Of a stretch of DNA of 64,000 nucleotides, positions 36,071-42,657 are shown in pieces. The stretch covers positions 64,001 to 128,000 of the forward strand of contig JAVRCV020000052.1 of NCBI GenBank assembly GCA_034530615.2, in the 5' to 3' direction. A program made the translations under genes and the position numbers. The stretch is from Aulosira sp. ZfuVER01 (GTDB lineage Bacteria; Cyanobacteriota; Cyanobacteriia; Cyanobacteriales; Nostocaceae). How positions within the stretch are numbered: the first letter of the stretch is position 1; every line of letters starts with the position of its first letter. A model generated the notes under the pieces. It searched no databases, was not told where the DNA came from, and saw only the letters and a list, made by a program, of their open reading frames with translations.

Positions 36071-36508
36071 CTAAGAATCATTGAGATAGGTGCTATCAAC
36101 CGCTGATTGCAGGTCATCGGCTGCAAAATAGAATCGTTGAGCCGGAAAATAAATGCTGTTGTAGTCGCGGATAATTAATTCTGCTGGCAAATCCTCCTGG
36201 TTTCTGTTTAACGCTCTTTTTAAAGCTGTTACAAAACTACATTCACTCTAATAAATTATCGCTCCTGTAATCAAATCATTTGGGGTGGTGATTCCTGTAC
36301 CGCACTAGGTAGGGGTTTGGGTGAAGGGATTAGCAAACTGTCCGGTAAGTACGGTTGTCAGATTAATTGAGCGATTCTTCCTGAGGGGATGGGTCAGCAT
36401 TTGGAACAGATCGTCAAAGCAAATGGCAAGGAGTATATAGCTTGTTTGATGGGAGAGGTTAAAGATATATCGACCAATGATTTGGCAACCTGAATCGAGA
36501 GATTGCAT
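36071..36508 (-). pseudogene. Possible decayed ORF with two internal TAG stops
   Basis: One frame from ATG 36508 to TAG 36071, interrupted only at 36305 and 36248; no family recognised. Confidence 0.25.
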
Positions 36509-36624
36509 TATGTCGGTTGCTATGATACTGTTTATACCAACATCTGCACCTTAAAAATTTAATAAATACGTATTATTGACTGGTAGCCTAATGCTTAGTT
36601 TCCTCAAGCTATTTTGTTAAGAAA

Positions 36625-36823
36625 TGTAAACTGAGGGGGTTGTCCAAAAGCCCAAAGGCTGATTGTTTCGTAGGCCCCCTCAGGTGGCTTATTGTATAAG
36701 GGTTTGAGTTACTTGGAGAATGTAGTTATTCTCAATAACTGCCGTCTGTTGACAAGTAAAATCTACCCCCCTCAGTTTTACAGGTCTGTAAGCCTTATTT
36801 GGTAAGCTTTCTGTAAGAGTAGG
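36625..36823 (+). promoter_or_regulatory. CRISPR array 1 leader
   Basis: Non-coding, adjacent to the intact end of the array; CTGAGGGGG/CCCCCTCAG motifs and an AGTTATT-CTC-AATAACT palindrome. Confidence 0.75.
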
Positions 36824-37728
36824 GTTTTAAATCTCTTACCCCTCACGGGGATGGAAACTACACCTTGTCTAACAGCTGTTATACAACCCTCTTCTGTTTT
36901 AAATCTCTTACCCCTCACGGGGATGGAAACGTTAGAACTTCCCGGTAATGTATGAGCGTAACATGTTTTAAATCTCTTACCCCTCACGGGGATGGAAACT
37001 GTACTTCATACCACCAATGTATACCATATTACCAAGTGTAGCGTTTTAAATCTCTTACCCCTCACGGGGATGGAAACTGTCGCGGCTCTTCCTTCATACC
37101 CTCGCAATGCATCCAGTTTTAAATCTCTTACCCCTCACGGGGATGGAAACTGCTCAACCGTCACATCTTTGCCGAAGATAGCTCTGGCAAATGTTTTAAA
37201 TCTCTTACCCCTCACGGGGATGGAAACAGATAATCTTGTAGATAATCATTTTCGATTAAGAGAGGTTTTAAATCATTCAGAAAGACAGGCCTTACTCACG
37301 CCTATAAAAATGATAATCATTTTCGATTAAGAGAGGTTTTAAATCTCTTACCCCTCACGGGGATGGAAACGCTTGGTCTCAGGTCGAGGATTAGGCTTGG
37401 TGTGATGAGTTTTAAATCTCTTACCCCTCACGGGGATGGAAACGTTACTAGGAGCTTGCAAATAGGCTTCGGCAATTTGTTTTAAATCTCTTACCCCTCA
37501 CGGGGATGGAAACGTCTTACAAAACTTGAGTATCTTTGCTTGAAATCTAGTTTTAAATCTCTTACCCCTCACGGGGATGGAAACTTAAAGCTAAAGGAGA
37601 ATCAGAACCAGAGGCCAAGCTTCCAGTTTTAAATCTCTTACCCCTCACGGGGATGGAAACCTTCCGACACGACCAGGAATGGACGCGGGAACTGTTTTAA
37701 ATCTCTTACCCCTCACGGGGATGTAAAA
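36824..37728 (+). CRISPR. CRISPR array 1, 35-nt repeat GTTTTAAATCTCTTACCCCTCACGGGGATGGAAAC
   Basis: 12 repeats starting at 36824, 36896, 36965, 37043, 37116, 37193, 37336, 37409, 37479, 37550, 37626, 37694 (last ends GTAAAA, degenerate); spacers 33-43 nt; one anomalous 108-nt interval. Confidence 0.99.
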
Positions 37729-37743
37729 AGTTGAAAGTAGGTT

Positions 37744-37787
37744 GCGATCGCATTTGAAAAGTTGGCGTTGCATAAATGCGCGATCGC
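37744..37787. repeat. HIP1-N28-HIP1 hairpin element
   Basis: GCGATCGC at 37744 and 37780 with an inner GCATTT/AAATGC stem. Confidence 0.55.
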
Positions 37788-42040: not shown

Positions 42041-42657
42041 CTTTCAATCCCCTTGCGGGGTAATAGTTAGTGGAAACCTAAATTTATATAAATTAAGTCT
42101 AAATCTTCGTTTCAATCCCCTTGCGGGGTAATAGTTAGTGGAAACTCACTAATATCTATTGCCATACGTTTTAAATATGTCCAGTTTCAATCCCCTTGCG
42201 GGGTAATAGTTAGTGGAAACAACTCTTTCTTAGTTTATGTAGTTTCTAATCACAGAAGTTTCAATCCCCTTGCGGGGTAATAGTTAGTGGAAACTTTCCA
42301 GGGTGGAAGCCCACAAACCCTAGAAGGGAGTTTCAATCCCCTTGCGGGGTAATAGTTAGTGGAAACTGCACTAGCAGCAGTGAACCCAGATGCTTTAAGT
42401 TTCAATCCCCTTGCGGGGTAATAGTTAGTGGAAACTTGGTTGGGTCTCCACCCAGAGCCAATTGATTCTAGGAGTTTCAATCCCCTTGCGGGGTAATAGT
42501 TAGTGGAAACTGCCACCGAAGTAGCGAAGTAAAGGAGGATTCACTAGTTTCAATCCCCTTGCGGGGTAATAGTTAGTGGAAACCGCTGCTTATCGTCAGC
42601 TAAACCTACAGATTGCAAACGTTTCAATCCCCTTGCGGGGTAATAGTTAGTGGAAAC
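42041..42657 (-). CRISPR. CRISPR array 2, 37-nt repeat GTTTCCACTAACTATTACCCCGCAAGGGGATTGAAAC (minus-strand reading)
   Basis: 9 repeats starting at 42041, 42109, 42184, 42258, 42330, 42399, 42474, 42547, 42621; 8 spacers of 31-38 nt; the 42041 copy is mutated (trailer) and a leader lies on the right. Confidence 0.99.

Follow-up and report, generated by a model that had tools for sequence, protein, structure and literature searches.

The window analyzed here is a stretch of 64,000 nucleotides belonging to contig C52 of the Aulosira sp. ZfuVER01 genome, which comprises 8.03 Mb in 83 contigs. Between the msrB gene and a MAPEG gene, it contains a CRISPR array on the forward strand (36824..37728) with 12 copies of a 35-nt repeat, GTTTTAAATCTCTTACCCCTCACGGGGATGGAAAC, 11 of which are identical to each other while the terminal copy (37694-37728) is degenerate, with 2 mismatches. 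The 12 matches to the repeat in the array compare with 0 in 100 shuffles. The array is preceded by a leader region (36244..36823, same strand), the last 25 nt of which (36799-36823, ending in TTGGTAAGCTTTCTGTAAGAGTAGG) are conserved in the repeat family and can be aligned with 23 other leader-repeat junctions. With the degenerate copy at its right end and the conserved part of the leader to its left, the array is oriented from left to right. Ten of its 11 intervals are of the size of a spacer (33-43 nt); the exception is interval 6, which spans 108 nt. The leader end and the repeat start together make up a near-palindrome at 36812-36839 (GTAAGAG...TTTAAA...CTCTTAC), and the related arrays of this genome on contigs C22 and C73 display a similar symmetry at their junctions (GGGTAGG...ATTACCC); this symmetry may be part of the recognition of the junction. 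A 112-aa open frame at 36992-37330, running through repeats and spacers alike, is an artefact of the repeats and not a gene.

No cas genes are found among the 13 ORFs that we scanned near the array (approximately 21.7-40.5 kb of the window), and the genome as a whole codes for 4 cas1 and 3 cas2 genes along with 12 arrays. In four of the other arrays, of which contig C22 has three and contig C73 one, the 35-nt repeats have the hairpin and 3' end CCCCTCACGGGGATGGAAAC in common with this array. The genes beside the arrays on C22 include cas10/csm1, csm2, csm3, csm4, csm5, cas6, CARF genes, csx3, a cas1-cas2 pair at C22:29390-30642 and, at C22:33731-35752, a gene for a 673-aa reverse transcriptase-Cas1 fusion (RT-Cas1) without a Cas6 domain. 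The 35-nt repeat with its CCCCTCACGGGG hairpin and ATGGAAAC end, the conserved leader end and the presence of the cas genes elsewhere in the genome show that this array is an orphan of the cyanobacterial type III (III-D-like)/RT-Cas1 repeat family. Filamentous cyanobacteria typically have orphan arrays that a remote Cas6 serves in trans; this has been shown in Anabaena 7120, whose type III-D arrays are likewise split by an RT-Cas1 gene (10.1101/2020.04.14.041012). In the three closest species (G006, G008 and G003) the msrB gene is separated from the MAPEG gene by 21-55 bp, with the block 36244-37781 missing and no array in its place. Given this absence from all three, the block formed by the leader and the array (about 36244-37781) is an addition in this lineage; the gain of an orphan array at the msrB/MAPEG site agrees with the fragmentation of arrays that has been described in filamentous cyanobacteria. 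The window also has a second orphan array (42041-42639) with 9 copies of a 37-nt repeat, GTTTCAATCCCCTTGCGGGGTAATAGTTAGTGGAAAC, and spacers of 31-38 nt.

The unusual interval 6 lies between two intact repeats, repeat 6 (37193..37227) and repeat 7 (37336..37370), and like them is described here on the forward strand. It reads, in order, spacer 6, positions 1-10 of the repeat, 37 unique nucleotides and the last 24 nt of spacer 6, upon which repeat 7 follows. Spacer 6 itself (37228..37264; 37 nt) is intact and directly 3' of repeat 6. Next to it is a stub with repeat positions 1-10 (GTTTTAAATC, 37265..37274), whose right edge would mark a bottom-strand cut between repeat positions 10 and 11, and then the 37-nt unique insert (37275..37311), presumably a mis-integrated spacer. 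A 34-nt segment is thereby present in two copies on either side of the insert: the first (37241..37274) combines the last 24 nt of spacer 6 (37241-37264) with the 10-nt stub and would correspond to the stretch between the staggered cuts, while the second (37312..37345) combines the same 24 nt (37312-37335) with 37336-37345, i.e., the start of repeat 7. The bases flanking the two copies differ on both sides (A vs T on the left and A vs T on the right), which fixes the length of the duplication at 34 bp and that of the insert at 37 nt. An exact 24-nt copy of spacer sequence at a distance of 71 nt is no chance event.

These features had been pointed out in a sequence-only reading of the window, which claimed a 34-nt repeat at 37241-37274 and 37312-37345 around a unique 37-nt insert; upon re-checking the sequence with a script we found this to be correct in every detail. 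Two likenesses that it reported are also directly readable from the sequence: the reverse complement of the site starts with GATTTAAAAC, which is alike at 8/10 positions to the repeat start GTTTTAAATC, and the end of spacer 6, TAAGAGAG, resembles the leader end TAAGAGTAGG.

To place the lengths of these elements in a wider context, we assembled a family set of 24 arrays with this type of repeat from the present genome and 11 others. The repeats in it are all 35 nt, and 204 of the 208 intervals are regular spacers (33-46 nt) with a mode of 37 nt (46/204). The insert thus has the modal spacer length of the family (37 nt), and at 34 bp the duplication falls a single base below the 35-bp repeat, which agrees with the match in length to a spacer and a repeat proposed earlier. 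The scar in interval 6 is a single event among the 208 family intervals, and also among the 149 intervals of the 12 arrays in this genome, of which 147 are regular; the only other irregular interval in the genome (113 nt, on contig C5) is accounted for by a degenerate repeat. The three remaining irregular intervals of the family are a trailer remnant (L029) and MITE-like insertions (L030 and L031). The duplication-plus-insert signature is absent from all other irregular intervals, both in the arrays of this genome and in the family arrays of its relatives. The arrays with identical repeats in G015 and G009 have no apparent spacer in common with the 36824-37728 array when the 20-nt spacer tails are compared. 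Further, a genome-wide scan for isolated duplication-plus-insert units yielded 17 candidates, 16 of which were judged to be ordinary short tandem repeats. The last of these, at G000:C50:43471, is an isolated exact duplication of 27 bp around a 30-nt insert (GGATTTTAGAGACAGCGATTTTAGATT ...), and its sizes (27/30) match no local repeat or spacer.

Of the two MITE-like insertions, that in L031 (G002:C1:7554300-7555600, locus 791-1030) is 128 nt long, is bounded by terminal inverted repeats (GGGACTTCCAA...TTGGAAGTCCC) and interrupts a repeat of a related array behind nucleotide 15; it has duplicated 3 bp (TTA) and looks like a MITE inside a CRISPR repeat. L030 (G002:C1:5095300-5098000, locus 2043-2285) is a 243-nt interval with inverted ends (GTGTCAACTTAAGC...ACGTTAAGTTGACAC), and is probably another small mobile element that lies inside a spacer.

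Taking the anatomy of interval 6 together with the above lengths, we infer that the scar arose when a Cas1-Cas2 type integrase encoded by this genome carried out one full-site integration of a spacer, out of register and at a staggered site inside the array. We estimate the probability of this reading at roughly 0.78; it is the most economical explanation and rests on the sizes, the read contigs (see below), the presence of matching adaptation genes and the analysis of the integration site. With respect to which of the four Cas1 proteins was the acting integrase, the repeat family points to either the type III Cas1-Cas2 pair or the RT-Cas1 of contig C22. Prior to the event, the array would have had the simple order repeat 6, spacer 6, repeat 7. 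A 37-bp prespacer would then have been joined to the top strand between positions 13 and 14 of spacer 6 (37240|37241), and to the bottom strand between positions 10 and 11 of repeat 7, with the two attacks bracketing 34 bp that lie 24-25 bp upstream of repeat 7. Gap filling would have copied the 34 bp between the cuts, just as the 35-bp repeat is copied in canonical integration. As for the order and orientation of the attacks, the bottom strand would have been attacked first, directed by the near-palindromic start of the repeat and keeping the register that the canonical attack has with respect to the TTTAAA core. The tail of spacer 6 (TAAGAGA, reverse complement TCTCTTA) would have reinforced this by resembling both the inside of the repeat and the end of the leader. 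A ruler would then have determined the position of the second attack, at a distance of 34 instead of 35 bp; this site lies 5' of a G and is otherwise unlike the end of a repeat.

This orientation is suggested by a comparison of the site with canonical junctions. The 24 junctions between leader and repeat in the family have the ending ...TTCTnnAAGnGTAGG|GTTTT, and the repeat start, G-T-TTTAAA-T-C, reads almost the same on both strands. Consequently, the bottom strand of every repeat offers GTAAGA|GATTTAAAAC, a mirror of the true junction GTAGG|GTTTTAAATC, and the canonical cut mirrored about the center of TTTAAA falls between repeat positions 10 and 11, which is exactly the bottom-strand cut of the scar. 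A junction profile was derived from the 23 homologues outside the present array, and we used it to scan both strands of the locus as reconstructed before the insertion, i.e., minus 71 bp. With the profile spanning -12..+15, the bottom-strand site ranks 10/2806, and only the true junction and 8 canonical repeat starts score above it; with that spanning +1..+15 it ranks 13/2830, preceded only by the 12 canonical starts. In both these scans it comes first of the 12 mirror sites in the array, by a small margin (4.2 vs 3.5 bits). Over -6..+10 the 12 mirror sites are tied, as they are identical over those positions. The top-strand cut site is unremarkable in all the scans, with ranks of 288, 629, 1222 and 430 (288 at -12..+15 and 430 at +1..+15). 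Both the cuts of the scar are 5' of a G, as are both the canonical cuts. This pattern would fit a sequence-directed first attack on the bottom strand followed by a second one set by distance, and mirror docking of this kind is likely for the scar.

Given that the mirror site occurs in every repeat, we also considered the tail of spacer 6 as a factor in its use. Its reverse complement has 7 exact nucleotides (TCTCTTA) in common with the repeat interior, which is reached by 0/204 other family spacers, and the tail has a 6-nt match (TAAGAG) to the leader end, which is reached by 4/204. These two figures are not independent, because GTAAGAG in the leader is the reverse complement of CTCTTAC in the repeat, and both statistics were picked after the site had been seen. 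The mimicry is also imperfect: compared with a genuine repeat, TCTCTTA is shifted inward by 3 nt, and AAGA stands where the leader end has its conserved TAGG. The proposal that spacer 6 provided a decoy site thus finds agreement in the ranking of the site and in the likeness of the tail, and is tempered by the 3-nt shift, the unmatched TAGG, the post hoc choice of the statistics and the full profile (-25..+35), in which the bottom-strand site is unfavored at rank 290/2740. Hence, we consider a decoy role of the tail to be plausible and moderately supported. Alternatively, with twelve equivalent sites available, the integrase may on a rare occasion have slipped at one of them unaided. We rejected a variant with the ruler anchored on TCTCTTA itself, as it would predict a duplication of approximately 38 bp and not 34.

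The mirror docking has to be weighed against an alternative involving the same integrase, whereby it docked in the forward orientation and merely slid to a position 24-25 bp upstream of repeat 7, with the likeness of the bottom strand to a junction being a coincidence. The two cuts are symmetric in their outcome, so the scar cannot reveal which of them came first; moreover, a mirror site present in all 12 repeats was used only once, and the low rank under the full-length profile also speaks in favor of such sliding. However, the pseudo-repeat aligned to a real repeat in the forward register agrees at 10/34 positions by hand count, which is at chance level, and the top-strand cut site ranks 288/2806, whereas the bottom-strand site is the best of all non-canonical ones and is in the exact mirror register. 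We therefore consider forward sliding to be unlikely.

Recombination could in principle generate the same interval without any out-of-register integration. Unequal crossing-over would first have doubled the spacer-6 unit, and 38 nt (repeat position 11 to spacer position 13) would then have been swapped for the 37 nt now present. According to the literature, spacer duplications by recombination are common in arrays, and 108 nt is also the sum of a spacer, a repeat and a spacer (37+35+36). Nevertheless, this scenario needs at least two events, one of which would have to exchange stretches of almost equal length and have both its endpoints within units; moreover, the 37 nt have no match in the genome that might have served as donor, and no other repeat of the array is changed except the terminal one. 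These points make it very improbable. We give even less credence to a Cas-independent duplication-insertion, whether it came about by repair, by template switching or through a tiny mobile element whose target duplication is long. Small elements do enter arrays of this family in relatives, as seen with the 128-nt and 243-nt insertions of L031 and L030, but the insert in interval 6 is single-copy and without terminal inverted repeats, both its lengths fit the local repeat and spacer sizes, and the duplication made by the L031 element is of 3 bp only. To our knowledge, a 34-bp target duplication fits no transposon class. A MITE or IS insertion in the narrow sense was rejected on account of the lack of inverted ends, the 34-bp duplication and the single copy. 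In-register ectopic acquisition of the type II-A style was similarly rejected, as the insert is not located between two complete repeats and has only 10 nt of a repeat on its left.

The junctions of the scar are seen in sequencing reads, independently of the assembler. A search of public runs recovered three, all from a single study, which contain this stretch; X4 gave short, diverged pieces only, and no RNA run was listed among those containing it. In each of the three runs a 101-nt contig covers 37245-37345 with 0 differences and crosses both the stub-insert junction and that between the insert and the second copy. The depths of these junction contigs are 245.5, 191 and 857.4, as against 174.8/203.5, 128.1/148 and 834.1/786.5 for the single-copy flanks on the left/right in the same order of runs. 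Both junctions are thus carried at full depth by contigs built independently of the assembly; they exist in the reads and are not a minority form. The three runs may have been the source sample of the assembly, which would make them independent of the assembler while perhaps not of the sample. Short reads are known to assemble arrays poorly, but with a different pipeline arriving at the same sequence without a difference in three runs, at a depth equal to or above that of the single-copy flanks, an artefact of assembly is scarcely credible.

We then looked for the origin of the insert and for the allele that preceded it. An exact search of the 8.03-Mb genome returned no other occurrence of the insert, and the best other matches by short-word blastn are 13-mers. 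There are 0 matches in exact scans of viral, genome and metagenome contigs, and among 401 genomes of the order, allowing <=3 mismatches, it is found in its own genome only. A blast against phages gave just two chance-level matches to a Sulfolobus virus (E = 6). When the whole array is used as the query, there is no match in phages, and only 3 Nostoc records in plasmids, at 66-70% identity over the full query, which we read as matches to the repeats. Because the spacers of this array match no phages in any case, and the plasmid matches are read as repeats, the blank protospacer search is weak evidence. An empty allele, 71 bp shorter, was not seen in a setting where the three closest species are without the entire array and the runs that hold it come from one study. 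Likewise, no co-existing allele without the insert was seen in the run contigs, which are built from short words that cannot resolve a 34-bp duplication. In sum, the suggestion of a natural full-site mis-integration gains from the sizes, the read contigs, the cas genes and the ranking of the site, while its protospacer and insert-free allele were not found in these searches.

The mechanism itself is already known from experiments, and the scar reveals no new one. In the E. coli type I-E system, off-target integration by Cas1-Cas2 is reported to spawn new arrays, or 'neo-CRISPR' units (Nivala, Shipman and Church 2018), and papers citing that work mention circumstantial natural cases in two other species. 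The scar would resemble these off-target events in having an insert of spacer length, a direct duplication of non-repeat DNA with the length of a repeat, staggered cuts and gap filling. Unlike them, it is a natural scar inside an existing array, across a spacer-repeat junction, without over-expression and with the integrase as its presumed agent, and it belongs to a cyanobacterial type III/RT-Cas1 repeat family rather than to type I-E. Another counterpart is the Cas6-RT-Cas1-Cas2 system of Thiomicrospira, for which 14 full-site events are described, 12 at the leader-repeat junction and 2/14 off it, with a 35-bp duplication of the adjacent sequence (Wang et al., 10.1101/2020.10.18.344481). The repeat is of 35 bp in both; however, from what is described, the Thiomicrospira events took place in vitro, with a plasmid as the target and the repair left to E. 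coli, and the fusion has a Cas6 domain, while the duplication in the scar is of 34 bp.

Two further systems provide parallels for the choice of the site and for the ruler. In type II-A systems (S. thermophilus, S. pyogenes and S. mutans), ectopic acquisition of spacers is known to occur in register (McGinn and Marraffini). As described there, the incoming spacer is placed in the interior of an array, at a point where the end of a spacer resembles the leader anchor, which is reminiscent of the present case; however, a true repeat is duplicated in that process, whereas the scar duplicates 24 nt of spacer and 10 nt of repeat. In the type I-B system of Haloarcula hispanica, it is reported that sequence fixes the first site and that the second depends on distance, irrespective of the sequence found there, giving duplications of 29-33 bp in place of the normal 30 bp, i.e., 1-3 bp off (Wang et al. 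2016, PMC4872114). In contrast to the scar, those results were obtained with repeats mutated by design, and the first cut was made at the true junction of leader and repeat. No report of a scar of this kind in a cyanobacterial or type III array was found in the literature that we searched.

Off-target CRISPR integration is known mostly from over-expression and test-tube work, and natural scars show that it occurs in wild genomes and where. The exact boundaries of the scar read out two cut positions of an integrase of the Nostoc-type type III/RT-Cas1 kind. As a single event, the scar suggests a rule whereby the first cut is made at the palindromic start of the repeat and the second by a ruler of 34-35 bp. 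Extending this, we tentatively propose, as a speculation that may well not hold, that integrases of the type III/RT-Cas1 family recognize chiefly the nearly palindromic ~10 bp with which the repeat opens (G-N-TTTAAA-N-C), dock on them either way around and place the second cut with a sequence-blind 34-35-bp ruler. If such mirror docking were true, there would be a cryptic reverse integration site in every repeat of such arrays. Spacer tails that resemble the repeat interior might then unmask this site, giving rise to inverted, silent spacers and to raw material for repeat-like units.

Finally, we consider what the scar would mean for the crRNAs. In type III systems, crRNA maturation proceeds by Cas6 cutting at the repeats followed by 3' trimming. 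The pseudo-repeat should not be processed, because it is without the CCCCTCACGGGG hairpin and ATGGAAAC handle that define the repeat family; this goes against the idea that it provides a functional route to new repeat sequences. Cas6 is thus not expected to cut anywhere from repeat 6 up to repeat 7, and would leave an intermediate of approximately 143 nt (8 + 108 + 27) as against approximately 72 nt for a regular unit. After 3' trimming, spacer 6 would be the sole guide and the insert would be silent. Thus, the 108-nt interval does hold two spacers as had been claimed, but just one of them, spacer 6, is expected to function as a guide if the general scheme of type III trimming applies. By this account the scar would be neutral, and its neutrality may perhaps be the reason for its persistence.

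A separate observation concerns the end of spacer 3 (AAGTGTAGC, 37031-37057), which, immediately before repeat 4, forms the most leader-like spacer-repeat junction of the array. This junction scores 18.1 bits, in comparison to 31.0 for the true junction and <=11.5 for the remaining ones. In-register ectopic integration at the spacer 3/repeat 4 junction would be invisible as a scar.
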